Source: Tannockella kyphosi (GTDB lineage: Bacteria; Bacillota_I; Bacilli_A; Erysipelotrichales; Coprobacillaceae). From it: a stretch of 32,000 nt of DNA. This document shows, one piece after another, positions 1,780 through 31,979 of the stretch. The notes under the pieces were generated by a model. That model searched no databases, had not been told where the DNA came from, and saw nothing but the letters and a program-made list of their open reading frames with translations. The stretch covers positions 630,001 to 662,000 of the forward strand of contig NZ_CP088239.1 in assembly GCF_021054785.1 (NCBI RefSeq). Direction: 5' to 3'. The translations under genes were made by a program, and so were the position numbers. Every line of letters starts with the position of its first letter. Positions within the stretch are counted from its first letter, which is position 1.

Positions 1780-1790
1780 GAGGAAGAAAA

Positions 1791-2516: not shown

Positions 2517-2571
2517 TAGATTTATAAGATGAATGATAAAAATTTTAATTTTCAATGATTGTTTGGGATGC

Positions 2572-2602
2572 AAAAGAACTTGAATCTAATTCAAGTTCTT
2601 TT
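2572..2602 (+). terminator. Rho-independent terminator of the surface-protein cluster
   Basis: AAAAGAACTTGAAT-cta-ATTCAAGTTCTTTT forms a perfect 14-bp stem with a T-run. Confidence 0.8.
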
Positions 2603-2703
2603 GGCGAGTTATGAAAAAAGATACAGAATGTAATGAAAAGAAGAGCAAACATTTTTTTCTTTTATAGAAAGTGATATAGTATAGAAAAGTAGGAGGGATG
2701 GAT

Positions 2704-3249
2704 ATGGAAATATCGATTTTATGGTTATTGTTTATTATGGCATATTTGATTGTCATTCAGATTTGCTTTTATTTTATTGTTCTAAAAAAAATAGGCAGAG
2801 AAAAAAGATGCTGTGAAAAAACAGTAGGTGTAGTCAAAAGAATGTCTAGTATTTACTATGGGGATGCACATACTGCAGTTGTAGAATATTTTGTAAATAA
2901 TAAAAAGTATAAAGTAGTTGGACCTAAGTTTTTGGGAGGAACATGTATTACTGTAAAAACACCTTCTCAAGATATAGAAACAGCTTTTGAATCAAATTTA
3001 ACATCCAAGGATAATCTACCATTATATGTTCATACCAAAATATATAAAAATTCAATAGCTTGTAAAACTTGTTCACCGATTCTTGAATTATTTCCAATAG
3101 GCTCAGATGTAGATGTATATTATAACCCTAATAAACCAAAGGAAGCATACGTACATCGATTTGAAGGTATTTCAAAAATAGTAGTGGGTATATTTGTAGG
3201 AGCAAATATGTTATTGCTAGTTTTTGCATTTATTTTATTTATATTATAA
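2704..3249 (+). CDS. DUF3592-like membrane protein (TM - beta-rich domain - TM)
   Basis: N- and C-terminal TM helices flank a soluble segment containing VVEYFVNNKKY...VDVYYNPNKPKEAY, typical of DUF3592 as I recall it. The AGGAGGG RBS at 2691-2697 is spaced correctly for the ATG at 2704. The track start at 2698 abuts the RBS. Confidence 0.55.
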   Translation: MEISILWLLFIMAYLIVIQICFYFIVLKKIGREKRCCEKTVGVVKRMSSIYYGDAHTAVVEYFVNNKKYKVVGPKFLGGTCITVKTPSQDIETAFESNLTSKDNLPLYVHTKIYKNSIACKTCSPILELFPIGSDVDVYYNPNKPKEAYVHRFEGISKIVVGIFVGANMLLLVFAFILFIL

Positions 3250-5369: not shown

Positions 5370-5886
5370 AAGTGTGCCAGGCATGGTATACATCTAAGTG
5401 GTGAAAGTCCACCGTGGGGGAATAGTCGCCAACCACTAGTCGAAGTCAAGGGTGTCCATCGTGAGGCGGAATCTGAAGGAAGAATTAGACAAAACTCTGG
5501 TCTTAGGAACACGAACTATATCAGGCAGGAGATAAGAGACAAGTGTGCTTAACAACACAAAATCTAACAGACTATGAAGTACTTATCTAATGTAAATATG
5601 GAAGATATATGGAGGGAAAGATGTATAGCCTTACCCTGGGAGGTCTCACAAGCGAGAAAGTAGTAACAACGAATTGTGAGAAGTCAGCCGAGGTCGTAGT
5701 AGTGAGGAAGTACCTGTAATGGGTATGGAGCAAAGGACTGAACAGATTTATCAGTTAAAGAACTGTCAAATTGCACCGGTATGTGTAACTCGAGGACAAG
5801 AGTGAAACTAGAATAGTGAGTAAACAAGAACGGAGGAAAGCTATAAGTCAACATACAGGAAACGAAAGGAAGGGAAGTAACGAAAT

Positions 5887-7176
5887 ATGGAAACAGAAAG
5901 AAATGAATTACTTAATCAACTGCTTAGTGAAGAAAATATGATAGAAGCATATAAGCAAGTCAAACGAAATAGAGGAGCTAGTGGAATAGATGGTATGGAA
6001 GTAACTGAGTTAAAGGAATACCTAGAAGAACACGGCGAAGAAATTAAAGAAGAGATAAGGACAAGGAGATATAAACCTAGTCCGGTAAGAAGGGTAGAAA
6101 TACCAAAAGAGAATGGTGGAGTAAGATTACTTGGAATACCAACAGTAAAAGATAGAATGGTACAACAAATGATAGTGCAAGTATTAACACCAATCTATGA
6201 ACCGATATTTAGTGAACATAGCTATGGGTTCAGACCGGGTAGAAACTGTGAAATGGCAATCATAAAAGTATTAGAGCACATGAATGAAGGATTGCATTGG
6301 ATAGTAGATATTGACTTAGAGAAATTCTTTGATAATGTTCACCATGATAAACTAATTCGACTAGTGAGTCAACAGGTAAAAGATGGTGATGTAATATCCC
6401 TAATTAGAAAATTCCTAAGAAGTGGAATCATGATTGATGACGAATATAAAGAATCAACAATCGGAACGCCACAGGGCGGAAATCTTAGTCCATTATTATC
6501 AAATATTATGCTTGATGTGTTGGATAAGGAATTAGAGGCAAGAGGACTTAATTTCGTAAGATATGCAGATGATGTGCAAATATTGGTAGGAAGTCAAAAA
6601 GCAGCAAATAGAGTAATAGAGAATGTGAGTAGGTACATAGAAAAGAAACTAGGATTAAAAGTAAATATGACAAAAAGCAAAGTCAACAAACCAGAGGGTA
6701 CAAAATACCTAGGGTTTGGATTTTACTATGATAAACTTCAAAAGACCTATAAAGCGAAACCACATAAACTTTCTGTAGAAAAACTGAAAAGAAAACTGAA
6801 GCAACTTACAAGCCGGAATTGGGGAGTGAGCATGGACTACAGACTACTAAAGATAAAGCAATTGATAGTAGGATGGGTCAACTACTTTAGAATAGCGAGT
6901 TTTAAGAAAGTGTGCAAACAAATAGATGCACATACACGGTTTAGACTTAGAATGTGCATATGGAAACGATGGAAAAGAATAGGTACAAAATACAGAGCAC
7001 TAATAAAACTAGGAGTAAACAAATATAAAGCATGGGAATGGGCGAATAGCAGAAAAGCATACGCACGAGTTGCCATGTCATATATCATGTGTAGAACGGT
7101 AACGAACGATAGACTAAAGAAAAGAGGTCTAGTATCACTACTAGACCAGTATCAGTTAAAACATATTTTAGTATAA
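5887..7176 (+). CDS. ltrA: Group II intron reverse transcriptase/maturase (no DNA endonuclease domain)
   Basis: RT blocks RRVEIPKENGGVRLLGIPTVKDRMVQQ, FSEHSYGFRPGRNCEMA, DIDLEKFFDNVHHD, TPQGGNLSPLLSNIML and the YADD box (FVRYADDVQILV). The X/maturase region contains GWVNYFRIAS. At 429 aa the C-terminus has no HNH motif. Confidence 0.95.
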   Translation: METERNELLNQLLSEENMIEAYKQVKRNRGASGIDGMEVTELKEYLEEHGEEIKEEIRTRRYKPSPVRRVEIPKENGGVRLLGIPTVKDRMVQQMIVQVLTPIYEPIFSEHSYGFRPGRNCEMAIIKVLEHMNEGLHWIVDIDLEKFFDNVHHDKLIRLVSQQVKDGDVISLIRKFLRSGIMIDDEYKESTIGTPQGGNLSPLLSNIMLDVLDKELEARGLNFVRYADDVQILVGSQKAANRVIENVSRYIEKKLGLKVNMTKSKVNKPEGTKYLGFGFYYDKLQKTYKAKPHKLSVEKLKRKLKQLTSRNWGVSMDYRLLKIKQLIVGWVNYFRIASFKKVCKQIDAHTRFRLRMCIWKRWKRIGTKYRALIKLGVNKYKAWEWANSRKAYARVAMSYIMCRTVTNDRLKKRGLVSLLDQYQLKHILV

Positions 7177-7182
7177 ATTTGA

Positions 7183-7253
7183 ACCGCCGTACACCGAACG
7201 GTACATACGGTGGTGTGAGAGGACGATAAATAAATTAATTATTTATCTCCTAC
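7183..7253 (+). ncRNA. Group II intron domains V and VI
   Basis: DV: ACCGCCGUA(C)-ACC-GAAC-GGU-AC-(A)UACGGUGGU. DVI: GAGGA(c)GAUAAAUAA-auuaa-UUAUUUAUC-UCCU-A*-C, with the unpaired A at 7252 as candidate branch point. Confidence 0.7.
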
Positions 7254-7285
7254 TCGATTCAAGAAGATACGTTTTTAAGACATTA

Positions 7286-7294
7286 TGCTATAAT
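7286..7294 (+). promoter_or_regulatory. Extended -10 promoter element (TGcTATAAT) for the GNAT gene
   Basis: TGCTATAAT lies 63 nt upstream of the ATG at 7357. No convincing -35 was found. Confidence 0.4.
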
Positions 7295-7356
7295 GAAGAA
7301 GTTACTAGAAAGATAGTAGTTTATTTTGTAGTGATAGGATGAATGGAGAATAACGA

Positions 7357-7869
7357 ATGATAATTAGACAAGAAGAATATAAAGACTTTGCTGAAATTAG
7401 AGAACTTGTTAAAAGTGCTTTTGAAAATGCAGAACATACAGATGGAAATGAGTATAAATTATTAGATCTATTAAGAAAAAGTGATGGTTTTATCAAAGAA
7501 CTTGCACTAGTTGCTGTAATGGATGATAAAATAATAGGTCATATTATGTTTACAAAAGTTAAGGTAAGAAAGCATATTGGTCTTGCATTAGCACCATTGT
7601 CCGTATTACCTGATAAACAAAAAAAGGGAGTGGGTCAGACTCTTATGAATGAAGCACATGCTATTGCTAAAGAATTAGGATATCCTTTTTCAATTGTATT
7701 AGGTGATGAAAATTATTATCCTAAAGTAGGATATCAAAAAGCAAGTTTGTTTAAAGTAGTAGCTCCTTTTGAAGTCCCAGAAGAAAATTATATGATATTA
7801 TTTTTAACAAAACAGAACTTTTTATTAGATGGTACAGTAGAATACGTAAAGGAAATGTTTGAACTATAA
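7357..7869 (+). CDS. GNAT family N-acetyltransferase (YhbS-like)
   Basis: The acetyl-CoA binding segment LSVLPDKQKKGVGQTLMNEA matches Q/R-x-x-G-x-G/A. The C-terminal GDENYYPKVGYQKAS is typical of YhbS-type GNATs. GGAG RBS. Confidence 0.8.
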   Translation: MIIRQEEYKDFAEIRELVKSAFENAEHTDGNEYKLLDLLRKSDGFIKELALVAVMDDKIIGHIMFTKVKVRKHIGLALAPLSVLPDKQKKGVGQTLMNEAHAIAKELGYPFSIVLGDENYYPKVGYQKASLFKVVAPFEVPEENYMILFLTKQNFLLDGTVEYVKEMFEL

Positions 7870-7872
7870 AAT

Positions 7873-7904
7873 AAAAAAGAGGTAACCCACAAGTTACCTC
7901 TTTT
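7873..7904. terminator. Bidirectional terminator between GNAT gene and putP
   Basis: AGAGGTAAC-ccacaa-GTTACCTCT, with an A-run on the 5' side and a T-run on the 3' side. Confidence 0.8.
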
Positions 7905-7906
7905 CA

Positions 7907-15452: not shown

Positions 15453-17480
15453 ATGAACAAAGATTATGAAATTTTATTTACACCAGCCAAAATTGGTAAC
15501 TGTGAGATTAAAAACAGATTCGTTATGGAACCTATGGAACCAACAAAAATATTAGATTGGACCATGACAAATAATGGGTTTCACACTGAGTCAAGACAAT
15601 TAATTTTAAATCGTGCAAAGGATGGTGTTGGTTTAATTATACCTGGGGCAGCATCAACTCATTCTTTGATGACGAAAGAATTTCTGGGTGATCACCCAGA
15701 AGTATTTGAAGGACTTCAAGAATTTATGGATGAAGTTCACTCTTATGGATCAAAGTTGTTTGTACAGTTAGCAGCTGGTTTTGGAAGAAACTTCCCATAT
15801 CCAGTGGATATGCAAATATTATCATTTATTCCTGATTTAGAGAGTTCAATCTCTACTGCTGATGCTGGTTTGCCAAATCGTTGGATTCCTGAACATTTAT
15901 CTACCCAAATGTCTGTAGAAACAATTCATAAAATTGTCGATGGATTTGCTAATGCTGCCTATCTATGTAAAATAAATGGGGTAGATGGTATTGATGTTCA
16001 TGCGGTTCATGAAGGGTATGTTATGGACCAATTTGCTACTTCACACACAAATCATAGAACAGATGAATATGGTGGTTCATTAGAAAATAGATTACGTTTT
16101 GCTTGTGATGTTGTAAAAGCAATCAAGCTAAAATGTGGTGATGATTTCCCAGTAATGTTACGATATTCTGTAGAAACAAAGACAAAAGATTTTGGAAAAG
16201 GGATTATACCTGCAGATCAGGATTCTATAGAAATTGGACGTACAATGGAAGAATCTAAAGAAGCTATTAGAATATTAAGTGAAGCTGGATATGATGCATT
16301 CAATGCTGATAATGGAACGTATGACTCATGGTATTATGCTCACCCTCCAGTATATATGCCCCCAAACTGTAACTTGAAAGAAACGATGGAAATTAAACCC
16401 TACACAGATAAACCTGTTATCTGTGCCGGTAGAATGGAATTAAAACAAGCTGCCGAAGCTATTGAAGGTGGTAACCTAGATTTTGTAGGAATTGCTCGCC
16501 AATTCTTAACAGATGAAAACTATCTTACAAAAATTAGAGAAGATATAGAAGAAGACATTAGACCTTGTATATCTTGTCATACTGGTTGTTTAGCATTTTC
16601 ACTATGGAAAGACTCAGGAGCAACAGGTCATATAGCAGGTAATTGTGCCTTAAATCCATATACTAATAATGAAGAAAAATATGAACTAAAGATAACAAAA
16701 GATCCTAAACATTTTGCTGTAGTAGGTGGAGGAATTGCAGGTATGGAGTTTGCACTACAGGCACTAAGACATGGACATAGTGTTGATTTATATGAAAAAA
16801 GTGATCGACTAGGTGGTGTATTTAATGAGGCAGCTTGCTTTAGTTTTAAAGGAAAAGCAAGAGAGTTGTTAAAATATTATGAGTGTCAAATCAAAAAATC
16901 ATCCGTTCATTTACATATGGCTACAGAAATAACAGATACCTGCTCACTAGAAGCAGATGAAATTATTATAGCAACAGGTAGCCTAGAGCCAAGAAGTATT
17001 CAAGTACCTGGTAGTGAATATGCAATGAATGCGGTTGAATTCCTAGCAAATGGAATGGATTGTGGTCAAAATGTAGTAATCATTGGTGGTGGTGAAACAG
17101 CTTGTGAATTAGCTTATGACTTAGCTATGTTAGGGAAAAAACCTGTTATTATAGAACAACAAGATGATATTATGAAAGCACCAGGGTCATCTATGGCAAA
17201 TACAAGTTATTTAAGAGATGCTTTTGAATACTATAAAGTACCAGTTTATCTAAGTGCGAATGTTCTAAGTATTGAAGAAAACGCAGTTGTAGTTAAAACA
17301 GAAACAGGCCAAGAAATAAAAATAGCAGCAGATAATACAGTAGTATCTATTGGATTTATAAGTGGTACAAAGATTAAAACGGAAACTAAATCTAATGTAC
17401 ATATTCTAGGAGATGCACATAAAGTTTCAAATCTATTAGATGCAGTGAAACAAGTAAATGATCTAATTCTTGAATTTTAA
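15453..17480 (+). CDS. Multidomain flavoenzyme of the 2-enoate reductase / 2,4-dienoyl-CoA reductase family (OYE-like FMN barrel + 4Fe-4S + FAD/NAD(P) domain)
   Basis: N-terminal OYE-type motifs LFTPAKIGNCEIKNRFVMEPM, HAVHEGYVMDQFAT...TDEYGGSLENRLRF. Cys cluster CISCHTGC...C. Dinucleotide fold VVGGGIAGME and a second one, IIGGGETACE. The ATG at 15453 lies behind a GGAGGGAG RBS; the track start at 15435 is a TTG. Confidence 0.8.
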   Translation: MNKDYEILFTPAKIGNCEIKNRFVMEPMEPTKILDWTMTNNGFHTESRQLILNRAKDGVGLIIPGAASTHSLMTKEFLGDHPEVFEGLQEFMDEVHSYGSKLFVQLAAGFGRNFPYPVDMQILSFIPDLESSISTADAGLPNRWIPEHLSTQMSVETIHKIVDGFANAAYLCKINGVDGIDVHAVHEGYVMDQFATSHTNHRTDEYGGSLENRLRFACDVVKAIKLKCGDDFPVMLRYSVETKTKDFGKGIIPADQDSIEIGRTMEESKEAIRILSEAGYDAFNADNGTYDSWYYAHPPVYMPPNCNLKETMEIKPYTDKPVICAGRMELKQAAEAIEGGNLDFVGIARQFLTDENYLTKIREDIEEDIRPCISCHTGCLAFSLWKDSGATGHIAGNCALNPYTNNEEKYELKITKDPKHFAVVGGGIAGMEFALQALRHGHSVDLYEKSDRLGGVFNEAACFSFKGKARELLKYYECQIKKSSVHLHMATEITDTCSLEADEIIIATGSLEPRSIQVPGSEYAMNAVEFLANGMDCGQNVVIIGGGETACELAYDLAMLGKKPVIIEQQDDIMKAPGSSMANTSYLRDAFEYYKVPVYLSANVLSIEENAVVVKTETGQEIKIAADNTVVSIGFISGTKIKTETKSNVHILGDAHKVSNLLDAVKQVNDLILEF

Positions 17481-22170: not shown

Positions 22171-23076
22171 TTATTTTGCTAGATCAAGCATTTTTTCTAA
22201 AGGTTTTAGGGCATCTATTGCGATAACATCATCCACATTAACTTGGTAGTTATTATTTTTCAATGATGATAAAACACTATTTAAAGTAATTGATTTCATA
22301 TCAGGACAACTTTGTTGTTCACTAATAGTATGAAATATTTTATTAGGACTTTTTGATTTTAACTCATATAAAATACCTAGCTCTGTTGCAATTATAAATT
22401 CATTGCATGTTGATTTTTGAGAAAACTCAATAATTTGTGATGTACTCCCTATAAAATCAGCAAGTTCTAAAATATCTCCAGTACATTCAGGATGTGCTAA
22501 AACTAACGCTGATTTATATTTTGCTTTTGTTTTCATTAAATCAAAAGCATGGATAGCAGTATGTACATGACAATATCCTTTATTAAAAATAAAGTTTTTT
22601 TCTGGTATTTTAGATTGACAATATCTACCTAGATTTTCATCAGGAATAAATAATATATTTTTATTCGGGAGAGATTTTACTATTTTTATTGCATTAGAAG
22701 ATGTAACACAAACATCAGATACTGACTTTAATTCAACGGATGAATTTATGTAGCATACAACTGCTAAATCATCTTGTTCATTTTTGATTTTTTTAACATT
22801 TTCTACTGTTGCCATATGTGCCATAGGGCAATCAGCGTTCTTTTCTGGAAGTAGTACGATTTTATTTGGATTAACTATTTTAGCGCTTTCTCCCATAAAC
22901 TTAACACCACAAAATACAATTACATCGGCAGTACTTTCTTTTGCAATCTTAGCTAAATAATAGGAATCTCCTACATAATCTGCAATTTCTTGAACCTCAT
23001 CTGCTACATAATAATGTGCTAATATAATAGCGTTTCTTTCTTTTTTTAATTTAACAATTTCCTCTTTCAATCTCAT
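22171..23076 (-). CDS. nadA: Quinolinate synthase
   Basis: ILAHYY, VGDSY, FCGVKFMGESAKI, ADCPMA, VCYINS, AHPEC and IATELG, including the three-Cys pattern (CPMA, ...C..., CPDM) of NadA. Confidence 0.9.
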   Translation of the reverse strand: MRLKEEIVKLKKERNAIILAHYYVADEVQEIADYVGDSYYLAKIAKESTADVIVFCGVKFMGESAKIVNPNKIVLLPEKNADCPMAHMATVENVKKIKNEQDDLAVVCYINSSVELKSVSDVCVTSSNAIKIVKSLPNKNILFIPDENLGRYCQSKIPEKNFIFNKGYCHVHTAIHAFDLMKTKAKYKSALVLAHPECTGDILELADFIGSTSQIIEFSQKSTCNEFIIATELGILYELKSKSPNKIFHTISEQQSCPDMKSITLNSVLSSLKNNNYQVNVDDVIAIDALKPLEKMLDLAK

Positions 23077-23214: not shown

Positions 23215-24141
23215 TTAAACGCTTTTATTATTGGTATCATTATATAGTTGAGGCTTTAAAGCAAGTTTGGAATAGTTTTTTATATGGTTATAGAAATTAG
23301 TCATTCCATCGCTTAATACTTTGCTTTTTTTCATCGTTAAAAATATTTTCCATTCAAAGCTATTATCTGGAAATGGTACGTATCTGACATCTTGATTCGT
23401 AAAAGATCTAGTATGAGCAGGTACTACAAAAAGAAAGTTATTGTTAATGGCAACTTCTCTTAAAGAGTTGAAATCATTTGATGCAATTTCTATTTGTGGT
23501 GAAAAACCACTTTTTTTACATACCCATTCAAAGTCATGACGAATATGAAACTGTGTACTAAATGTTGCAAATGACTGATCTCTAAGGTCATCCATTGTAA
23601 TATCTTTTTTTGTATATAACAAATGAGTAGGGGGGATGCATAAATAGATACCTTGTGTATAAATACATTCACCAATTACTTCATCACTATCTACTATTCC
23701 TGTTGTAACACAAAAATCATAGTCTCCTCGTAACATTTGTCGTTCTAAATAATAATCAGCACGATCATTATAATCAATTTTTATATAATCATGCTTTTTT
23801 TCGAAATCTTTTATCATATTAAAAGGTAGTGCAGAGATTACTCCAAAGGCCATCCCTAGATGAATAGTTTCTACGGGAATGTTATCTATATTAGAAAGAT
23901 GTTCTTTTAGAAAACTTCTTTTATCTAACATTGCGATACACTCCCCAAGGAAATAGATTCCACTCTTTGTAGGAGTTACCCCTTTTTTAGAACGGATAAA
24001 AAGCGTACAACCAAGTTCTTTTTCTAGTTCTTTAATTGTGTGTGAAATACCTTGTTGTGATATGTAGCTAACTTCTGCAGCACGATTAATACTTTTATAT
24101 TCGCAAACTAACACAAATAATTCCATTTGATGAAATGTCAT
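23215..24141 (-). CDS. LysR family transcriptional regulator
   Basis: The N-terminal HTH is MTFHQMELFVLVCEYKSINRAAEVSYISQQGISHTIKELEKELGCTLF. About 300 aa, and divergent from the reductase operon. Confidence 0.88.
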   Translation of the reverse strand: MTFHQMELFVLVCEYKSINRAAEVSYISQQGISHTIKELEKELGCTLFIRSKKGVTPTKSGIYFLGECIAMLDKRSFLKEHLSNIDNIPVETIHLGMAFGVISALPFNMIKDFEKKHDYIKIDYNDRADYYLERQMLRGDYDFCVTTGIVDSDEVIGECIYTQGIYLCIPPTHLLYTKKDITMDDLRDQSFATFSTQFHIRHDFEWVCKKSGFSPQIEIASNDFNSLREVAINNNFLFVVPAHTRSFTNQDVRYVPFPDNSFEWKIFLTMKKSKVLSDGMTNFYNHIKNYSKLALKPQLYNDTNNKSV

Positions 24142-24276: not shown

Positions 24277-26223
24277 ATGGAAAACAAATTTTACCCAAAT
24301 TTAGCAAAATCAATTCAAATTGGTGATGTTACATTTAAAAATCGTATTTTAGGAGCACCTATGTCAAATCCTGAAATGGACACAGAAAGTCACATGAGAA
24401 GAGAAGACGTAGCCTTTCATGCAAATCGTGTAAAAGGTGGATTATCAAGTACTTGTATCGGTTTAGGGGTTGTGTCACCAGAAGGGCGTACACATACCAA
24501 AGAAGTTACATTATATGATGTTATGAGTTTACCATCATTAAAAGAATTTTCAAATGCAGTTCATCGTCATGGGGCACTAGCAGTTATGGAATTAACGCAT
24601 GGTGGTAAATATGCAAATGCACGTGGTCATGCTGGAGTTTCTGGTTCATCAATGGGGCCAAATGATGAGGTTGGTTCTCATGGAAATATGATTCATGCAA
24701 TGAATGATGAAGAAATACTTGCAGTTGCAGAAGAATTTGGAGAAGCAGCAAAACTTGTAAAAGAAGCAGGAATAGATATGATTTTATTACATGCAGGGCA
24801 TGGATGGTTATTGCACCAATTCATTTCTCCTGCTATGAATAAGAGAACAGATAAATGGGGTGGATCTTTAGAAAATCGTATGCGATTCACTTTACTAGTT
24901 ATTGAAAAAATTCGTGAAGCAGTTGGTCAAGGTTATCCAATTGAATTCCGTTATAGTGGTGCTGAGTTTGATGATGGTGGATACACAATTGAAGAAGGTG
25001 TTGAAATCGCAAAAGCAGTAGATGGGAAAGTTGATTTAATACATGTTTCAGCAGGTGTTCATGAAAATCCAGAAGTATTTGGGATTACCCATCCGTCGAT
25101 GTTTGTACCAGAAGGTTGTAATGTATTCTTAGCTGCTGAAGTGAAAAAACATGTAAAAACACCAGTTGCTACTTTAGGTGGTTTATCAGATATGGATATG
25201 ATGGAAGATATTATTGCATCAGGGAAAGCAGATATTGTTGAAGTTGCTAGACAGTCAATTTGTGATCCATATTTTGTAGAAAAAGCATTTTCAGGAAAAA
25301 GTGATGAAATCGTTTCTTGTTGTCGTTGCTTTACATGTTTCTATAATTATTTAACAAATAGAACATATGCTTGTGCATTTAATCCAGAAGTTGGAAATGA
25401 ACTTGCTTGTCAAAGTGCACCAGTTGCAGTAGAAAGTGCAAAGAAAGTTATTGTTATTGGTGGTGGACCTGGTGGTATGGAAGCCGCTTGTACTGCTGCA
25501 CAAAGAGGACATACTGTTAGTTTATATGAAAAATCTAGTTCATTGGGTGGACAATTACGATTTGAAGAACATATTCCATTCAAGAAAAATATGCATAAGT
25601 TTGTAAAAGTAATGGAAAAACGTTTAGAAGATACAGGGGTAGAAGTTCATTTAAATCATGCTCTTTGTGGCAAAGAAGTTGCAAATATGGATGCGGATGC
25701 AGTTATAGTTGCAGTAGGTGCATCTCCAATTGTACCTTCTATTGAAGGTATTGATAGTTCAAAAGTGGTTGGTTTAGATGTATTAACAAAAGCTAATCCA
25801 GAATTAGGAGAAAATGTTGTTATCTTAGGTGGAGGTCTAGTAGGGACTGAAGTTGCAATTTACTTAGATGGTCTTGGTAAAAATGTAACGATGATAGAAA
25901 TGAATGATGACTGGGCTACTGATTCTTACTTTATGCATAAAAATGCAATGGCTACTTATATCCGTAAAAGCAATATTAAAATCCATACATCATCAAAAGC
26001 GATTGCTATTAATGATGAAGGTTTAGTATGTGATACACCAGATGGTCAAGTAGTGTTTAGTGCTGATCATATCTTATTAGCTGCAGGTATGCGTCCAAAT
26101 ATTGCCCTTGCAAAAGAGTTCGAAAATACTGCTCCACGTGTTTTTGAAATTGGTGATGCTATTCGTACAGCTCGTGTTAGTGATGCTGTTTCTGATGGTT
26201 ACTATCGAGCGTTAGCAATTTAA
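24277..26223 (+). CDS. Second multidomain 2-enoate reductase / dienoyl-CoA reductase family flavoenzyme (paralog of 15453-17480)
   Basis: OYE-type motifs HAGHGWLLHQFISP...NKRTDKWGGSLENRMRF. Cys cluster CCRCFTC...C. Dinucleotide folds VIGGGPGGMEAA and ILGGGLVGTEVA. AGAAGGAG RBS. Confidence 0.8.
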   Translation: MENKFYPNLAKSIQIGDVTFKNRILGAPMSNPEMDTESHMRREDVAFHANRVKGGLSSTCIGLGVVSPEGRTHTKEVTLYDVMSLPSLKEFSNAVHRHGALAVMELTHGGKYANARGHAGVSGSSMGPNDEVGSHGNMIHAMNDEEILAVAEEFGEAAKLVKEAGIDMILLHAGHGWLLHQFISPAMNKRTDKWGGSLENRMRFTLLVIEKIREAVGQGYPIEFRYSGAEFDDGGYTIEEGVEIAKAVDGKVDLIHVSAGVHENPEVFGITHPSMFVPEGCNVFLAAEVKKHVKTPVATLGGLSDMDMMEDIIASGKADIVEVARQSICDPYFVEKAFSGKSDEIVSCCRCFTCFYNYLTNRTYACAFNPEVGNELACQSAPVAVESAKKVIVIGGGPGGMEAACTAAQRGHTVSLYEKSSSLGGQLRFEEHIPFKKNMHKFVKVMEKRLEDTGVEVHLNHALCGKEVANMDADAVIVAVGASPIVPSIEGIDSSKVVGLDVLTKANPELGENVVILGGGLVGTEVAIYLDGLGKNVTMIEMNDDWATDSYFMHKNAMATYIRKSNIKIHTSSKAIAINDEGLVCDTPDGQVVFSADHILLAAGMRPNIALAKEFENTAPRVFEIGDAIRTARVSDAVSDGYYRALAI

Positions 26224-28377: not shown

Positions 28378-28460
28378 CATATCAAATAATTTAAAAATAA
28401 AAGTTTATAATAGAATATATCTTTATTTATGTAAATTTTACAGTAATGATAGTTATATTA
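28378..28460 (+). repeat. Left copy of ~83-bp direct repeat flanking the nitrogenase-like cassette
   Basis: CATATCAAATAATTTAAAAATAAAAGTTTATAATAGAATATATCTTTATTTATGTAAATTTTACAGTAATGATAGTTATATTA. It matches 31850-31932 with about 5 mismatches and includes a 45-nt perfect run. Confidence 0.85.
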
Positions 28461-28491
28461 TTAGCATTAAAATGTTATTTATATAATTCTC

Positions 28492-28520
28492 TTGACAAAA
28501 TTCATAATATTTTATACAAT
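28492..28520 (+). promoter_or_regulatory. Sigma-A type promoter of the marR / nitrogenase-like operon (TTGACA-17-TACAAT)
   Basis: The -35 TTGACA is at 28492-28497 and the -10 TACAAT at 28515-28520, with an exact 17-nt spacer. Confidence 0.65.
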
Positions 28521-28524
28521 TTCC

Positions 28525-28537
28525 TTAGCACTACTAA
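28525..28537 (+). promoter_or_regulatory. Operator palindrome copy 1 (TTAGCACTACTAA), probable MarR site at the transcription start
   Basis: It lies 5 nt downstream of the -10. The 17-mer TTAGyAsTACTAATTAA recurs at 28572-28588 (inverted) and at 29098-29114. Confidence 0.55.
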
Positions 28538-28575
28538 TTAAATATGGTGGCGCTAATTATTTAGAAACATTTTAA

Positions 28576-28588
28576 TTAGTACTACTAA
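28576..28588 (+). promoter_or_regulatory. Operator palindrome copy 2 (TTAGTACTACTAA) in the marR leader
   Basis: Perfect half-sites TTAGTA/TACTAA around one central base. It lies 15 nt upstream of the marR ATG and is preceded by TTAA. Confidence 0.55.
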
Positions 28589-28602
28589 GGTTTGGAGGTT
28601 AT

Positions 28603-29049
28603 ATGAAAAATTTAAAAAGTTTAGAAGAAAACCTGGATGAGTTGCAAAAAAGAATGCAAAAAATCAAAAAGGAAAACATGGCAGAAGAAAATTTTTTACA
28701 CTCTGGTGAGATGTCGTTAATTAAATTTATTGCCCATTATCATCATAGATTTGATAAAGCTCCTACACTTGTAAAGATAAGTCAAGTAATTGGTATTTCT
28801 GGTGCTACTGCCACGACACTAGCTGATAGGCTAATTAAAAAAGGTCTAATTGAAAAAAAATCATCACCAGATGATAAACGAGCAAAACTTTTGTCACTGA
28901 CACCAAAAGGAGAGGAGTATCTTATGTCTAATCGTACCAGACATAAAGAAATGTTATTGAAACTTACTTCATCTCTTGGCAAAGAGGATACAAAAGAACT
29001 CAATCGAATCATTGAAAAAATCAATGATCATCTAGAAAACGAAAAATAA
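28603..29049 (+). CDS. MarR family transcriptional regulator
   Basis: The wHTH and wing are LVKISQVIGISGATATTLADRLIKKGLIEKKSSPDDKRAKLLSLTPKGEEYL. GGAGG RBS. Confidence 0.85.
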   Translation: MKNLKSLEENLDELQKRMQKIKKENMAEENFLHSGEMSLIKFIAHYHHRFDKAPTLVKISQVIGISGATATTLADRLIKKGLIEKKSSPDDKRAKLLSLTPKGEEYLMSNRTRHKEMLLKLTSSLGKEDTKELNRIIEKINDHLENEK

Positions 29050-29097
29050 ATTTATATGTGCATCTATGTATGCACCTATATTTTACGAAAAAATTAG

Positions 29098-29110
29098 TTA
29101 GTACTACTAA
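29098..29110 (+). promoter_or_regulatory. Operator palindrome copy 3 (TTAGTACTACTAA) immediately upstream of the nifH-like gene
   Basis: It lies between the marR stop and the AAGGAGAG RBS. A weak TTTACG-17-TACTAA promoter could overlap it. Confidence 0.5.
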
Positions 29111-29129
29111 TTAAAAGGAGAGAATTAAT

Positions 29130-29897
29130 ATGAGAAAAATTGCAATTTATGGAAAAGGTGGTATTGGAAAATCTACTACTACCTCTAACTTATCAGTAGC
29201 ACTTGCATTAAAAGGATACAAGGTCATGCAAATAGGATGTGATCCGAAATCTGATTCAACCAAAAATCTTATGGGTGGTAAAATCATTCCATCTGTATTA
29301 GATAAAATAAAAGAAAAAGGTGATGATATTAGCCTTTGCGATGTTGTTTATAAAGGTTTTGGAGGGGTACTGTGTGTAGAGTCAGGTGGTCCTACTCCTG
29401 GTATTGGTTGTGCAGGCCGAGGAATAATATCAGCTTTTGAAAAGCTGGCAGAATTGGAAGCATTTGAAACATACCAACCAGACATTGTTATATATGATGT
29501 ACTAGGTGATGTTGTTTGTGGAGGCTTTGCAATGCCAATTCGTGATGGATATGCAAAAGAAGTTTTTATTGTATCAAGTGGTGAAATGATGGCACTTTAT
29601 GCAGCAGATAATATTTCTAGAGCAATCAAAAACTTTGAGAAACGTTCTTATGCAAAAGTTGGTGGACTTATCTTAAATTCTAAAAATATTGAAAATGAAC
29701 TTGAAATAGTAGAAAAAGCTTGCAAAGAAATAGGAACTGATATTGTGAAACAAATTCCAAGATGCGGTGATATTCAAACTGCTGAAAATGCTGGTGGTAC
29801 TGTTTTTGAGTTTACAAAAGAATCTATGATGATAGATGTTTATAATGATTTAGCAAATAAAATTCTAGAAAGAACAAGTGAAAATGAAGGAGAATAA
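29130..29897 (+). CDS. Nitrogenase iron protein-like ATPase (NifH/NflH/BchL superfamily)
   Basis: Walker A is [12 protein letters not shown]. Switch I is GCDPKSDST. The two 4Fe-4S ligand contexts are [16 protein letters not shown] and [16 protein letters not shown]. Also [13 protein letters not shown] and GGLILNS. The match to NifH is close over its whole length. Confidence 0.9.
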
Positions 29898-29898
29898 G

Positions 29899-30537
29899 AT
29901 GCGTAATATGAAAAAAATGATGCATGGAGATAAAGGGATTAATCGTTGTCCTCTATCTGGTGCAACGAAAGCTGTAATGATGGTCGATGGGGCAGCAATG
30001 CTAGTAATAGGTACAGAAGAATGTACCTATTACACTAAATCATCTTTAGAAATGAAAGGTGATAGTAGTAATTGCTTTTCTGTTGTATTAGATAAAAATG
30101 ATATAACTTTCGGTAGTCTTGATACTGTTAGTGAGGCTGTTTATGAACTGTTAGATGAATATAAACCAACTGCCTTGTTTTTAATTACAACATGTGTAGT
30201 TGAAATTATTGGTGATGATTTTACAGCACTTGCACTAGAAGCAAGTGCTAAATATAATTTGCCAGTAAAAGTTATTCAAACTAATCATTATAAAGGGAAA
30301 GATGATGAATATGGAATGGATTTAGTTTTTGATGCGGCAAAAGATTTAGGACAAAAGCCTCATAAGTTTAATAACATTACAAACATGATAGGCAATAAAA
30401 TAGGTAGTAAAGCGAATATGTCACGTTCTACTATGTCAGAAGAGGAAATGTTTCAAATGTTAAAAGCAAAAACAGGTGGAAGAATGTCAGACAAAGAAAT
30501 TCGTAAGAAAATACATTCTAAAATGGGAGGAAGATAA
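29899..30537 (+). CDS. Short (212 aa) NifD/K-like (nitrogenase component 1 type oxidoreductase) protein with three conserved-position Cys and a basic tail
   Basis: The ATG lies 1 nt after the nifH-like stop, behind a GAAGGAG RBS. Motifs are NRCPLSGA, LVIGTEECTYY and FLITTCVVEIIGDDF, which are the family's cluster-ligand contexts. The fold segment ends at about residue 150. A Lys/Arg/Met-rich tail follows. Confidence 0.75.
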   Translation: MRNMKKMMHGDKGINRCPLSGATKAVMMVDGAAMLVIGTEECTYYTKSSLEMKGDSSNCFSVVLDKNDITFGSLDTVSEAVYELLDEYKPTALFLITTCVVEIIGDDFTALALEASAKYNLPVKVIQTNHYKGKDDEYGMDLVFDAAKDLGQKPHKFNNITNMIGNKIGSKANMSRSTMSEEEMFQMLKAKTGGRMSDKEIRKKIHSKMGGR

Positions 30538-30538
30538 T

Positions 30539-31648
30539 ATGGCACTAACTAGATTTTTACCAACTCCATCAGATAGAATGGGGATTTTATGGTCACTTTT
30601 ACAAATGGAGGATGCTATTATCTTAGAATATGGCACAGAAGGGACAACTGCTTATGCAATGAAAATCAATATGATGATGGGAATGAATGTTCAAAACAAA
30701 CTCTTTGTCACTGGGTTAGATGAAAATAACGTAGTTATGGGTGATACAACAAATTTAGAGAAAAAGATTCTAGAACTTGACAAGAAATTTTCACCAAAAG
30801 CAATTTTTGTTATGGCATCTTCTGTTTCTTCTATGACAGGAACTGATGTGAAAGGAGTTTGTAAATATATGCAAGAGGAAGTAAATGCAAAGCTTGTCGT
30901 ATTTAGCCAAGGTGGATTTAATGGAGATTATAGTAGTGGACTACAAGCAAGTTATACTGATTTAATATCAAATTTTGCAATTTCTAGAATGAAAAAAGAA
31001 AATTGTTACAATATTTTAGGGGTTTTTGCAATGGACAAAAGTGCTAATGCAGATGTTTTAGAAATTGAAAAACAATTATCAAATAATTTTGGACTTCATA
31101 AGAATGCAGTGTTATCCTTAGAAACCAATCTTGAAAAAATTGAAACAATGTCAAAAGCTTTGGTAAATATTGTACTAAGTTATGAAGGATTAAAGGCAGC
31201 TGAGATTCTAAAAGAACGATTTGATATACCTTATATTTATGGACAGCCTATTGGTATAACAGCTACAAATAAGTGGCTAATAGATATTGCAAAAGCGATT
31301 AATATGGATTTTGAAATAACAAAAACAGAACAATCAAAACAACTAAATCGTAAAGTTTTAATTTATGCAAGCTATGATAAAGCACTTGCATTAAAACAGT
31401 ATATGGAAGAAAAAGGTTGTACTGTTTTAGATGTTGTTTGTACTCATAAAATTAAAAAACAAGATAGTATTCGATATATAAAGAATGAAAAAGAAAAGAT
31501 TGATTTGTTTAAGTTGACTAAGGATTCCATTGTTTTTGGAGATGATACTTTTTTAAAGTTTGCAGATAATAGTAATGTTAAAATTAGATTAACACAAAGT
31601 GAAAGTTTATTTGATTTACAATATTTAACTAAAATTTTTAAGTATTAG
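30539..31648 (+). CDS. NifD/K-like (nitrogenase component 1 type oxidoreductase) protein, 369 aa, lacking the canonical cluster cysteines
   Basis: The ATG lies 1 nt after the upstream stop, behind a GGGAGGAAG RBS. It has the same fold register as its partner, but motif 1 reads ILEYGTEGTTAY and motif 2 reads FVMASSVSSMTGTDV, with no Cys in either. Confidence 0.7.
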   Translation: MALTRFLPTPSDRMGILWSLLQMEDAIILEYGTEGTTAYAMKINMMMGMNVQNKLFVTGLDENNVVMGDTTNLEKKILELDKKFSPKAIFVMASSVSSMTGTDVKGVCKYMQEEVNAKLVVFSQGGFNGDYSSGLQASYTDLISNFAISRMKKENCYNILGVFAMDKSANADVLEIEKQLSNNFGLHKNAVLSLETNLEKIETMSKALVNIVLSYEGLKAAEILKERFDIPYIYGQPIGITATNKWLIDIAKAINMDFEITKTEQSKQLNRKVLIYASYDKALALKQYMEEKGCTVLDVVCTHKIKKQDSIRYIKNEKEKIDLFKLTKDSIVFGDDTFLKFADNSNVKIRLTQSESLFDLQYLTKIFKY

Positions 31649-31671
31649 TAGGTATAAGATACTTTATACAG

Positions 31672-31701
31672 AAGACTAGAATATATTTTCTAGTCTTTTT
31701 T
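31672..31701 (+). terminator. Rho-independent terminator of the nitrogenase-like operon
   Basis: AAGACTAGAA-tatatt-TTCTAGTCTT forms a perfect 10-bp stem running into TTTTTT. Confidence 0.85.
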
Positions 31702-31849
31702 AATACTTATCTTTAAAATAAAAAAGCAACATAATGCTACTTTGGAAGAATAAAAAAAGGATCATGAAGATAGTTAGTGATATCTTATTTAATAGTAGTT
31801 AAAAAATGAACACGTTAAGGTGGTTATATCTTACAATGATGAATTTATG

Positions 31850-31932
31850 CATAACAAATCATTTAAAAATAAAAGTTTCTAATAGAATATATCTTTATTT
31901 ATGTAAATTTTACAGTAATGATAGCTAAATTA
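31850..31932 (+). repeat. Right copy of ~83-bp direct repeat
   Basis: CATAACAAATCATTTAAAAATAAAAGTTTCTAATAGAATATATCTTTATTTATGTAAATTTTACAGTAATGATAGCTAAATTA. See 28378-28460. Confidence 0.85.
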
Positions 31933-31979
31933 TGCTATAGTTAACAAAAGATTATTTGGATAATGAAAGGTGGAAATAT

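Follow-up and report, generated by a model that had tools for sequence, protein, structure and literature searches.

Tannockella kyphosi, a bacterium from a fish gut, carries a NifH-like gene followed by two NifD/K-like genes in a region where neither nitrogen-fixation nor tetrapyrrole genes were identified. Which reaction could such a small nitrogenase-like enzyme carry out, and how did its genes reach this genome? We addressed these questions in a stretch of 32,000 nucleotides of contig NZ_CP088239.1 (positions 630,001 to 662,000), here called the window; coordinates below are those of the window.

Organization of the cassette

The genes form one transcription unit at 28475-31705, composed of a sigma-70 promoter, marR, nflH, nflD', nflK and a terminator. 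The features of the unit and its borders are the following:

28378..28461, + strand: left-hand member of a pair of 84-nt direct repeats around the cassette, 94% identical to 31850-31933
28475..31635, + strand: mobile unit, the segment common to cassettes of other genomes (blastn)
28492..28520, + strand: sigma-70-type promoter, TTGACA-17-TACAAT, 11/12 matches, the best site of the region
28525..28537, unstranded: operator-like palindrome O1, TTAGCACTACTAA, directly 3' of the -10 hexamer
28576..28588, unstranded: operator-like palindrome O2, TTAGTACTACTAA, just 5' of the marR ribosome-binding site
28603..29049, + strand: marR, MarR-family winged-helix regulator, 148 aa; PF01047 and PF12802
29058..29075, + strand: hairpin and T-rich run between marR and nflH, a terminator-like site whose fold includes the hairpin
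29098..29110, unstranded: operator-like palindrome O3, TTAGTACTACTAA, immediately 5' of the nflH ribosome-binding site
29130..29897, + strand: nflH, NifH-like ATP-dependent [4Fe-4S] reductase component, 255 aa; PF00142
29899..30537, + strand: nflD', 212 aa, NifD/NifE/BchN-type subunit reduced to domain I and carrying a basic helical tail; PF00148
30539..31648, + strand: nflK, 369 aa, subunit of the BchB/NifN/NifK type with three domains and no cluster cysteines; PF00148
31670..31705, + strand: intrinsic terminator of the unit, a 12-bp stem followed by a U-run
31850..31933, + strand: right-hand member of the 84-nt repeat pair, lying 5' of the following gene (ATG at 31981)

A preliminary description of this DNA, made from the letters alone, had proposed a canonical NifH homologue, 1-nt gene spacings, a dedicated MarR regulator and the lack of nifB/E/N/V, bch/chl, cfb or marB-like genes, and all four points held. 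The nflH/nflD' and nflD'/nflK junctions (TAAgATG and TAAtATG) each leave a 1-nt spacing, consistent with translational coupling. No nifB/E/N/V, bch/chl, cfb or radical-SAM gene was present among the ORFs scanned with Pfam, namely those of the window of at least 100 aa except 122-445 (-), 22171-23076 (-) and 23215-24141 (-).

The promoter serves marR and probably also the whole unit; a TTGACA/TATAAT-like pair occupies the same position in the 9 Bacillota-type loci compared that carry the same short architecture (the short form). Three copies of the 13-bp palindrome TTAG(T/C)ACTACTAA occur in the window, all of them at the cassette (0.1 expected by chance), and its position is conserved across related short-form loci: L001/L009 have the same motif in the place of O3, and more distant loci show CTTAG-N5-CTAAG at the O1 position. 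With its winged-helix domain and the palindromes at its promoter, the marR product appears to be a MarR-family repressor with cognate, putative operators, and in 12 short-form loci the gene directly precedes those of the reductase. The hairpin that follows marR is a candidate weak terminator or attenuator; its arms, GTGCATC...GTATGCAC, are kept in L001, L007 and L008. The terminator at the end of the unit has a z-score of -3.7, and none of 200 shuffled sequences folded as well. As to the direct repeats, the two copies are 3472 nt apart, their 45-nt core has exactly these two occurrences in the window, where chance predicts 0, an Rfam search with the left copy gave no family match and the right copy includes a promoter-like site at 31909-31936.

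The Fe protein and its two partners

NflH belongs to the NifH/BchL/CfbC Fe-protein family, with 320 bits against PF00142 Fer4_NifH (cut-off 25). The P-loop (GKGGIGKS), switch I (CDPKSDST), switch II, the GCAGRG cysteine and the second cluster cysteine are all readable and align with those of C. pasteurianum NifH. NflH is 51% identical to the latter protein and to the Fe protein of PDB entry 9fmg, and 92-95% identical among the closest cassettes. Its NCBIfam scores stay below the curated cut-offs for CfbC, the best match (335.7 bits, cut-off 402), for nifH (332.8, cut-off 394) and for BchL (221, cut-off 345), and it is nearer to NifH (268 bits) than to BchL (157 bits).

The preliminary description had taken both remaining products for NifD/K-like proteins of the component-1 fold. 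This is correct for NflK, which has the full fold: it scores 191 bits against PF00148, and its model (pLDDT 92.4) is predicted to resemble most closely NifN, BchB (TM 0.83-0.84) and AnfK/NifK. NflD', however, is a single-domain remnant that covers only positions 1-161 of the 399 of PF00148 Oxidored_nitro (88.8 bits). Its model (pLDDT 82.6) can be superposed on domain I of NifE/NifD (about 140 residues, rmsd 2.4 Å), and from profile span and model it would end before the region of the cofactor ligands. This architecture is conserved in 41 D' protein clusters from three phyla; on the K side, about 34 short sequences exist. Rikenellaceae proteins join D' in frame to an N-terminal portion of K, evidence in favour of a physical D'-K complex; one of these copies seems to be truncated, a 322-aa D'-K fusion being followed by a gap.

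Cys17, Cys42 and Cys99 of NflD' are invariant in 41 homologues. In NflK, Ser11, Thr36 and Ser94 stand at the three cluster Cys positions; over an alignment of 114 K proteins Thr36 and Ser94 are invariant and Ser11, Asp12 and Cys108 nearly so. Thr36 aligns with the NifN cluster cysteine and occupies the position of NifN-Cys44 and BchB-Asp36. The cluster-cysteine pattern of D' plus K is 3+0, to judge from the alignments a ligand pattern unlike that of any characterized member of the superfamily.

Comparison with known systems

In nitrogenase proper (Nif/Vnf/Anf), NifD and NifK each contribute three P-cluster Cys, and Cys275 and His442 of NifD are the cofactor ligands. This identity was rejected because the nifH score and those of NflD' (nifD 36, nifK 36) and NflK (nifD 63, nifK 17) lie below the cut-offs (654 for nifD, 427 for nifK), K has Ser11/Thr36/Ser94, D' stops short of the Cys275/His442 region and no nifB/E/N was found among the window ORFs scanned. 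The cassette almost certainly does not fix N2, since there is no M-cluster site, no P-cluster and no NifB within the window.

DPOR (BchL with BchN/BchB) is alike in being two-component and ATP-driven, in carrying three Cys on the N/D-type subunit and a non-Cys residue on the B/K-type subunit at the NifK-Cys95 position, and in having neither M-cluster ligands nor NifB (for the cassette, within the window); BchB is also the best predicted structural fit of NflK. However, the BchB ligand Asp36 (3+Asp pattern) is replaced by Thr in NflK, the D-type subunit of the cassette is cut to domain I, NflK has no C-terminal extension and no chlorophyll pathway context exists at the cassette. DPOR/COR (Group V) was therefore rejected on Thr36 and on the sub-cut-off scores for BchL, BchN (40.5 bits, cut-off 420) and BchB (83.5 bits, cut-off 490). 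NifEN provides the top NCBIfam (nifE) and PDB (NifE, NifEN fusion) sequence matches of D' and K, and likewise has an interface [4Fe-4S] cluster (predicted for the cassette) with three Cys on the E/D side. Yet the nifE scores of 61 and 95 bits are far under the 505-bit cut-off, NifN supplies a fourth Cys (3+1 pattern) where NflK has Thr36, D' lacks the domains of the L-cluster site and there is no nif context.

DPOR, COR and CfbCD are tetrapyrrole reductases using simple [4Fe-4S] clusters. CfbCD (Group IV-B) shares with the cassette this chemistry (predicted for the cassette), compactness, the lack of NifB (for the cassette, within the window) and, in CfbC, the top match of NflH, but CfbD is a homodimer instead of two unlike subunits and no other cfb genes exist within the window; we rejected it because NflH stays under the CfbC cut-off and the CfbD (TIGR03282) scores of 37.6 and 33.7 are below 268. 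Scores far under the curated cut-offs thus agree with the separation from nitrogenase, DPOR/COR and CfbCD made in the preliminary description. Group VI NFL of Elusimicrobia, as Meheust et al. are said to have reported in 2020, have an Fe protein about 40% identical to NifH. They resemble the cassette in very divergent D/K proteins, variable cluster cysteines, no NifB (for the cassette, within the window) and a proposed tetrapyrrole-type substrate, but hosts and architecture differ, and NflH scores near the nifH and CfbC cut-offs. Group VI was rejected, by description, on the 51% identity of NflH to NifH; while its context includes many radical-SAM genes (10.1101/765248), no radical-SAM neighbour was found in the window or the short-form loci examined.

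MarBHDK and IsrBHDK are also nitrogenase-like enzymes with substrates that are neither nitrogen nor tetrapyrrole, and to the likeness of NflH with the Fe protein of 9fmg may be added that some cassette relatives adjoin sulfatases. In Mar, which depends on MarB, a full P-cluster (3+3 Cys) is accompanied by an L-like cluster; Isr, which acts on isethionate, shows a 1+3 pattern (one Cys in IsrD, three in IsrK) and requires the adjacent radical-SAM IsrB (PMC11423573, PMC13474568). It is predicted to carry a [4Fe-4S] cluster only (PMC13474568), and the isr locus has a sulfonate-transporter context (PMC11423573). [quoted passage not shown] Isethionate reductase (Isr, Group IV-F; IsrDK compared by its published description) was rejected for its opposite pattern, the cassette having 3 Cys in D' and 0 in K, and neither an IsrB-like gene nor a sulfonate transporter was found among the window ORFs scanned. 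The cluster ligands thus separate the cassette from both enzymes.

Pseudo-nifH (T3 nifH) genes are NifH homologues of Clostridia and animal guts without annotated nifD/K and unlinked to diazotrophy (Mise et al. 2021, PMC8597730). It is plausible that the cassette and its parent family belong to this pool. The class was defined by the absence of nifDK alone, and divergent D/K partners, an importer-linked operon, a truncated D and a mobile MarR cassette are not described there (PMC8597730).

Selection and mobility

All four genes are under strong purifying selection, with dN/dS of 0.06-0.12 for marR, 0.03-0.05 for nflH, 0.04-0.12 for nflD' (0.06-0.17 in its tail) and 0.12-0.19 for nflK at dS of about 0.5-1.2. 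Since the whole range is 0.03-0.19, none of them is decaying, including the D/K-like genes that the preliminary description had allowed might be decayed fragments.

Horizontal insertion, which it had suggested as well, is evident: the cassette was acquired horizontally and is mobile as a unit. By blastn the T. kyphosi segment shows about 80-82% identity over about 3.15 kb with L001/L009, L007 and L008, the homology being limited to 28475-31635 and the flanks unrelated, and the proteins are 76-94% identical between Erysipelotrichaceae and Lachnospiraceae hosts. The L001 cassette sits in a prophage, between TerL (terminase) and portal, and that of Chakrabartyella piscis (L008), the second cultured isolate with T. 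kyphosi, in an ICE-like region flanked by relaxase and DUF3852. With its own promoter and terminator, its unrelated flanks and its TerL-portal or ICE sites, the cassette has the properties of a phage moron or mobile cargo. Other fish-gut MAGs also carry the approximately 3.2-kb segment, relaxase/MobC adjoin L152 and some cassettes neighbour restriction-modification or AbiEii-like (AAA_21) ATPase genes. A MATE exporter is present in some cassettes. Searches of IMG/VR yielded no cassette copy and those of GenBank phages none of the cassette's type, and D' and K matched no PADLOC or PHROG family.

A parent family in gut Clostridia

Longer relatives of these genes form operons of the order AraC / NifH / IsdE-like binding protein / FecCD / ABC / D (≈430) / K (≈410) / BilS-like flavodoxin, and are abundant in metagenomes of human gut and rumen. 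Their K-type subunits start with M-S/A-L-T-R-F-L-P..SDRMG and have Thr36 and Ser94. The cassette shares with this importer-linked family the K start motif, a three-Cys D and an Fe protein 73% identical to that of the long form; the importer and the flavodoxin are absent from the window, which makes it a derived sub-type. The short-K clade was monophyletic in 59/60 NJ bootstraps, the long forms being its sister and outgroup, and the basal short form, L152, retains FecCD and binding-protein genes. By these sequence relationships the short form is a streamlined offshoot of a large importer-linked family of gut Clostridia. The reductase had been described as stand-alone and without tetrapyrrole context, which is true of the window but not of the parent operons with their FecCD importers and IsdE-like and BilS-like proteins.

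The importer linkage (FecCD/Peripla_BP_2/ABC) is constant, down to members 27-30% identical. IsdE (heme) was the best curated family for 33/33 long-form binding proteins and BilS for 29/29 long-form flavodoxins, all below the curated cut-offs, so that these matches point to nearest named relatives only. Their sequence similarity to proteins that bind siderophores is about as good as to those that bind heme, as far as the binding proteins are concerned.

Proposed function and alternatives

We consider the cassette an intact, selected and mobile unit for a minimal two-component nitrogenase-like reductase, and give a probability of roughly 0.55 to this reading with the mechanism and substrate class proposed here. 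Without ligand, MarR would bind the three 13-bp palindromes, two at its own promoter and one before nflH, and silence the unit; they would be freed when MarR takes up a small molecule, probably the substrate itself or a related compound. The NifH-like dimer would then pass, driven by ATP, a low-potential electron from its own [4Fe-4S] cluster to a second one at the D'-K interface, to which the single-domain D' would contribute its three cysteines and the K side a non-cysteine ligand or an open site. From there the electron would reach an organic substrate bound mainly by K, and we infer that the outcome is the ATP-powered reduction of a small molecule.

Because the parent operon couples the enzyme to a FecCD-type importer, the substrate would by analogy most likely be a planar metal chelate or a tetrapyrrole/bilin-type compound, which in the fish-gut habitat could be heme or an algal pigment derivative. 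The IsdE and BilS matches of the long forms hint at the same class, as do the simple clusters of the tetrapyrrole reductases DPOR, COR and CfbCD, though Isr with its predicted [4Fe-4S] cluster acts on isethionate. Against a tetrapyrrole, neither an importer nor a nearby tetrapyrrole gene accompanies the window cassette. Moreover, D domains II/III and the K C-terminus, parts of the substrate pocket by analogy with DPOR, were lost, so the substrate may have changed. Detoxification of any xenobiotic would fit the MATE exporter of some cassettes.

A bolder version, which we regard as doubtful, places catalysis itself at the D'-K three-Cys [4Fe-4S] cluster: as D is cut down to the domain that holds this cluster, its iron would be open or oxygen-ligated and form the active site of a phage- and ICE-borne minimal reductase. 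Such an enzyme would give gut bacteria a transferable means of reducing, with ATP, dietary compounds beyond the reach of ordinary flavoenzymes, for example algal pigments, bilins or other xenobiotics.

The alkyl sulfatase neighbours of four Gram-negative loci point in a direction other than tetrapyrroles. The same enzyme and regulation could be directed at an organosulfur compound, or at a sulfate ester, of the algal diet, by reductive C-S or C-O cleavage like Mar/Isr or by acting on the sulfatase product, and we find this unlikely. MBL-type alkyl sulfatase genes (PF00753 + PF14863) adjoin the short form in L012, L015, L066 and L153, in L012 within the same operon and ahead of a PF00884 sulfatase gene, and divergently from the intergenic region bearing the MarR operator in L015 and L066; no sulfur-metabolism neighbours exist, however, in the window or the other Bacillota cassettes, and the regulator is of MarR type. 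The characterized non-tetrapyrrole NFL enzymes, Mar and Isr, do act in sulfur metabolism, and Isr probably with [4Fe-4S] only (PMC13474568, PMC11423573), but no radical-SAM MarB/IsrB partner occurs in the window or the short-form loci examined and the Cys pattern is 3+0 instead of 3+3 or 1+3 (PMC11423573). Sulfated algal material is plentiful in the K. sydneyanus hindgut (PMC11333855). Nevertheless, the parent family is tied to FecCD/Peripla_BP_2 importers and not to isr-type sulfonate/taurine ABC-transporter genes.

The same importer link is central to a further alternative, quite unlikely in our view, in which an ATP-driven one-electron reductase frees the metal from an imported chelate of very low potential, for instance a ferric catecholate siderophore, leaving ring or ligand unreduced; the short form would be a simplified version for which the interface cluster suffices. 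Among solved structures the binding protein matches best the siderophore binders YfiY, FeuA, FatB and CeuE, although IsdE is its top curated family throughout. The co-encoded electron donor is a flavodoxin, Btr is among the best matches of the AraC-type regulator, several loci have heavy-metal P-type ATPase genes downstream and the loss of D domains II/III would be tolerable in a pure electron-transfer role. Yet 61 long-form operons show no upstream enrichment of Fur-box-like sites (mean best 11.2/19 against 11.4 in shuffles, none reaching 14 of 19), and the window cassette is MarR-regulated without an importer. We know of no precedent for a metal-release reductase in the nitrogenase superfamily.

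It is highly improbable that no working reductase exists, and that the genes are a decaying long-form remnant or were co-opted for Fe-S handling, regulation or phage/host conflict: the loss of two of three D domains, a K without cluster cysteines, the prophage, ICE and defence-island neighbours and the one apparently truncated Rikenellaceae copy would agree with this, but they are outweighed by purifying selection on all four genes and the D' tail, a short architecture kept across three phyla, intact motifs in a closely conserved Fe protein, 1-nt junctions with own promoter, operators and terminator, and no PADLOC or PHROG family for D' or K.

Implications

Uncharacterized clades were named in a 2026 review as the main challenge of the nitrogenase-superfamily field (PMC13474568), in which only a handful of functions are established. 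The reductase proposed here, with a one-domain D and a cysteine-free K, tests which parts of the architecture ATP-driven low-potential reduction really needs. The cassette is tractable, as it occurs in two cultured isolates, has a MarR switch for finding the inducer and is of a size suited to heterologous expression. Carriage by a prophage and an ICE-like element would be unusual for the superfamily; if the phage-borne reductase is real, it would be the first case of a phage carrying nitrogenase-family auxiliary metabolic genes, and a catalytic interface cluster, if true, would mean a new catalytic architecture and a new substrate. Solving the short form would also help to explain many of the pseudo-nifH genes that distort diazotroph surveys.

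Gene content and architecture of the cassette

The window is AT-rich (G+C 25-39% per 1-kb window). K, the product of the third reductase gene, matches at 100% identity a "nitrogenase component 1" from Tannockella kyphosi, a member of the Erysipelotrichaceae that was isolated from the hindgut of Kyphosus sydneyanus, a fish that feeds on seaweed (PMC11333855). The cassette genes are the following.

28603-29049: marR, just upstream of the nifH-like gene
29130-29897: nifH-like gene for the Fe protein (Pfam Fer4_NifH, 320 bits)
29899-30537: second gene, D', 212 aa (Pfam Oxidored_nitro, 88.8 bits), its ATG 1 base past the nifH stop
30539-31648: third gene, K, 369 aa (Pfam Oxidored_nitro, 191 bits), starting 1 base past the D' stop

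The preliminary description had reported three reductase genes with 1-nt spacings, a canonical NifH homolog and a MarR gene, and each of these was recovered. The Fe protein carries the full motif set, with P-loop, switch I, switch II and both cluster cysteines, and by these motifs it is an intact NifH-type ATPase. The reported lack of a nitrogen-fixation or tetrapyrrole context also held, as nif accessory, bch/chl, cfb and radical-SAM genes were not found by Pfam among the window ORFs of at least 100 aa, a scan that covered all of these except 122-445, 22171-23076 and 23215-24141, all three on the minus strand.

Concerning the two proteins described as having the component-1 fold, both match Oxidored_nitro and K has the full fold, but D' is not a full D/K subunit: it is a single domain. 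Its Pfam match is confined to positions 1-161 of a 399-position profile, and its structural model (pLDDT 82.6) superposes at 2.4 Å on ~140 residues of NifE/NifD, only about a quarter of these proteins. Three cysteines of D', Cys17, Cys42 and Cys99, do not vary among 41 homologues; in alignments they correspond to the three P-cluster/[4Fe-4S] cysteines of NifD/NifE/BchN. The C-terminal tail is variable and basic, and in the window copy it is confidently predicted as two helices. The model of K (pLDDT 92.4) contains all three domains of the fold, and its closest structures are the beta-type subunits NifN and BchB (TM 0.83-0.84), AnfK and NifK. K lacks the cluster cysteines; Ser11, Thr36 and Ser94 occupy the three positions, with Thr36 aligned to the single NifN cluster cysteine at the position of Asp36 in BchB. 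Among 114 family members Thr36 and Ser94 never vary, and conservation of Ser11, Asp12 and Cys108 is 90% or higher. The D'-K pair is shown, as a prediction, to have the capacity for a single interface cluster held by three cysteines.

A short D of this kind (158-249 aa) was seen in 41 protein clusters. In Rikenellaceae metagenome-assembled genomes (MAGs) the D' reading frame continues into the N-terminal part of K, a fusion that supports a D'-K complex by a Rosetta-stone type of argument. The fused proteins (P0183, P0282, P0292 and locus L153 5171-6139) are 317-322 aa long and comprise D' plus the first ~150 residues of K, with an AraC gene in place of marR upstream; the fusion may represent either an additional step of reduction or a copy in decay.

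Decay of the window genes was the outcome that the preliminary description had named against itself, with the D/K-like genes as unconserved fragments. This was rejected by the recurrence of the short D and by the dN/dS values between the window cassette and those of L001, L007 and L008, which were 0.06-0.12 for marR, 0.03-0.05 for the Fe protein, 0.04-0.12 for D' (0.06-0.17 for its tail alone) and 0.12-0.19 for K, at dS of ~0.5-1.2 (reductase genes) and as high as ~1.8 (marR). All four cassette genes are under selection.

Comparison with known nitrogenase-like systems

Membership in characterised families was tested against curated NCBIfam models, and all those listed below were missed by wide margins.

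Scores of the cassette proteins against curated NCBIfam models
CfbC: 335.7 bits (cut-off 402)
nifH: 332.8 bits (cut-off 394)
nifE, with D': 61 bits (cut-off 505)
nifE, with K: 95 bits (cut-off 505)
CfbD: 37.6 and 33.7 bits (cut-off 268)
BchN: 40.5 bits (cut-off 420)
BchB: 83.5 bits (cut-off 490)

The Fe protein shares 51% identity with C. pasteurianum NifH and an equal 51% with the Fe protein in structure 9fmg, a methylthio-alkane reductase (Mar); it is nearer to NifH than to BchL (268 versus 157 bits). It is also more NifH-like than the Group VI Fe proteins, which show ~40% identity to NifH (10.1101/765248; PMC13474568). The distribution of cluster cysteines between the D-type and K-type subunits, 3 + 0 in the cassette, differs from that of every characterised member: 3 + 3 in nitrogenase and Mar, 3 + 1 in NifEN, 3 + Asp in DPOR and 1 + 3 in isethionate reductase, Isr (PMC11423573, PMC13474568). 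Mar and Isr moreover require a radical-SAM partner, whereas none was present for the cassette among the window ORFs scanned. By model scores and cysteine patterns, the cassette would stand outside the known clades, as had been proposed.

Promoter, candidate operators and terminator

The best promoter of the region, TTGACA-17-TACAAT at 28492-28520 (11 of 12 positions matching), is directly followed by the palindrome TTAGCACTACTAA. A second copy, TTAGTACTACTAA, lies ahead of the marR ribosome-binding site, and a third is located just ahead of the nifH-like ribosome-binding site, after a hairpin with a T-run placed 3' of marR (29058-29075). With up to one mismatch allowed, the motif occurs only at these three sites in 32 kb (0.1 expected by chance). 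The closest cassettes keep the positions of promoter, operators and hairpin, and more distant ones show CTTAG-N5-CTAAG at the equivalent sites. A strong terminator (z = -3.7) ends the unit at 31670-31705. This layout is the one expected of a MarR repressor that controls its own gene and gates the reductase genes, with MarR binding and a ligand both predicted, and the repressor-gated character attributed to the cassette agrees with it.

Mobility of the cassette

BLASTn homology to other genomes was confined to window positions 28475-31635 (~80-82% identity to L001/L009, to L007 and to L008), and the flanks are unrelated between genomes. In L001 the cassette is located in an HK97-type prophage, between the large terminase and the portal gene. 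In the complete genome of Chakrabartyella piscis (Lachnospiraceae; L008) it is flanked by a MobA/VirD2 relaxase, DUF6809, DUF3852 and a SpaA-repeat surface protein, a setting that is ICE-like. Elsewhere it adjoins a type I restriction-modification system (L002) or AbiEii-like (AAA_21) ATPase genes (L007), and the short form L152 adjoins relaxase and MobC genes. The cassette is thus shown to be mobile, and the horizontal acquisition suggested earlier is borne out by these limits and contexts. Small DUF6809 proteins were seen near the cassette in L001 (4019-4288, just before TerL) and as two copies directly upstream of it in C. piscis (7127-7753).

All of the nearest copies come from K. sydneyanus isolates or "FM_" MAGs (PMC11333855), and between an Erysipelotrichaceae host and a Lachnospiraceae host the Fe protein is 92-94% and K 76% identical. 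These findings point to transfer between members of that gut community.

The cassette lies between two copies of an 84-nt direct repeat (94% identical):

28378-28461: left copy
31850-31933: right copy, with a promoter-like site for the downstream gene

There is no recombinase between the two copies, and the repeat has no Rfam match and no exact copy in the metagenome collection. The pair is consistent with a putative insertion of the cassette into the intergenic stretch that precedes the next gene and has a racemase gene on its other side.

Phage carriage beyond L001 appears rare. A K-profile scan of IMG/VR found no relative, and GenBank phages gave nothing convincing, with one weak match (22% identity) in MT836848. 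This 8497-nt scaffold from human faeces (MT836848.1, L070), labelled "UNVERIFIED: Bacteriophage sp.", carries co-oriented ORFs of 253, 417, 380, 394, 340 and 263 aa, only the 380-aa ORF being matched (by K), and their sizes fit an H-D-K-SBP-FecCD-ABC operon. It was rejected as a case of phage carriage: it looks like another importer-linked operon and is probably bacterial DNA, because phage genes are not evident. A defence system or known phage family was likewise rejected, as D' and K have no PADLOC or PHROG family match.

An importer-linked parent family

At E < 1e-30 the K family comprises 105 clusters (50% identity). Its dominant gene order, drawn from 62 genome loci and 80 metagenome loci, is AraC (divergent), NifH-like, Peripla_BP_2, FecCD, ABC ATPase, D (~430 aa), K (~410 aa) and flavodoxin. 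We call this operon the long form (L004, L016-L067, L072-L150; e.g. L016 4018-11863). Its hosts are Clostridia, Lachnospiraceae, Oscillospiraceae and others from human gut, rumen and bird gut, and family members at only 27-30% identity are still importer-linked. Searching JGI/ENA metagenomes with the D' profile returned no further short forms (80 of 80 loci were long forms).

The short-type K was monophyletic in 59 of 60 neighbour-joining bootstraps, with long forms as sister and outgroup. The basal short form L152 retains downstream FecCD and binding-protein genes; D was therefore truncated first. The more derived cassettes, that of the window among them, are marked by MarR control and by loss of importer and flavodoxin. 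The description of the cassette as stand-alone holds for the window, where importer and flavodoxin partners are absent, but the gene-neighbourhood survey shows it to be a derived member of a large importer-linked family and not an orphan. Our full-text literature search returned no functional or descriptive report of either the importer-linked family or the MarR cassette; the nearest published concept is the "pseudo-nifH" of Clostridia (PMC8597730).

The IsdE-like binding protein of the long form is sometimes doubled (~620-650 aa). DUF6110 and a heavy-metal P1B-type ATPase repeatedly lie downstream of the long-form K/flavodoxin genes (L023, L047, L060, L067, L090, L094, L098), which hints that a metal is handled or released; FeoAB, considered for the pair beside the long form, was rejected, the genes being DUF6110 and a heavy-metal P-type ATPase.

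Other features of the window

A group II intron occupies 5455-7176: Rfam domains D1-D4 lie at 5455-5738, and the ORF behind them (5887-7176) encodes reverse-transcriptase and maturase domains. On the minus strand, 9679-14283 resembles a portion of a conjugative or prophage-like element, ~15 kb away from the cassette; amid ORFs without Pfam match, it encodes a T4SS coupling protein (TraG/VirD4-like, 12029-13456) and a member of the Clp protease family.

Two FadH/OYE-type Fe-S flavoenzymes (15435-17480 and 24277-26223) have BaiCD and the long-form bilirubin reductase as best curated matches, below cut-offs. Just upstream of each is an opposite-strand regulator gene (a TetR C-terminal-domain protein at 14742-15299 and the ORF 23215-24141, which fell outside the Pfam scan). 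Paralogues lie beside the short-form cassette in L011 (3034-4348 and 12807-14789), and this co-occurrence may be due to chance.

Function and substrate

In an ATP-driven step the Fe protein would pass electrons to a [4Fe-4S] cluster where D' and K meet, and from this cluster they would go on to an organic substrate. Judged from the predicted cluster sites, N2 reduction would be excluded, because those of the M-cluster and the P-cluster are absent.

As for the substrate, the evidence is indirect. The best curated family was IsdE (heme) for 33 of 33 long-form binding proteins and BilS for 29 of 29 long-form flavodoxins, all below cut-off. BilS is a partner of bilirubin reductase. The [4Fe-4S]-only relatives with solved chemistry are DPOR, COR and CfbCD, and their substrates are tetrapyrroles. 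Isr is also predicted to be [4Fe-4S]-only, with isethionate as its substrate (PMC13474568). Because of the IsdE and BilS matches and the tetrapyrrole-reducing relatives, we tentatively favour a planar chelate or a tetrapyrrole/bilin-type molecule, a possible rather than a probable assignment within the overall explanation.

An organosulfur compound or sulfate ester is suggested instead by the precedent of Mar and Isr and by the MBL-type alkyl sulfatases (Lactamase_B + Alkyl_sulf_dimr) that adjoin short forms L012, L015, L066 and L153. These sulfatase genes are at 6391-9454, 1663-3051, 6634-8022 and 868-2262, respectively, in MAGs labelled Akkermansia and Rikenellaceae; in L012 the gene has the same orientation as the cassette, and a PF00884 sulfatase comes after it. 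One-electron reduction of ferric siderophores is suggested by the importer type and the flavodoxin of the long form, but Fur-box-like sites were not enriched upstream of 61 long-form operons, and iron (Fur) regulation of the parent operon was rejected for this reason. Detoxification of any xenobiotic fits the MATE exporter and MarR found in some cassettes, the exporters lying beside short forms L002 and L014.

If the substrate is of the planar chelate or tetrapyrrole/bilin type, it could in the fish-gut habitat be heme or algal pigment derivatives. The cassette, a predicted reductase system, is unusual in architecture and experimentally tractable.
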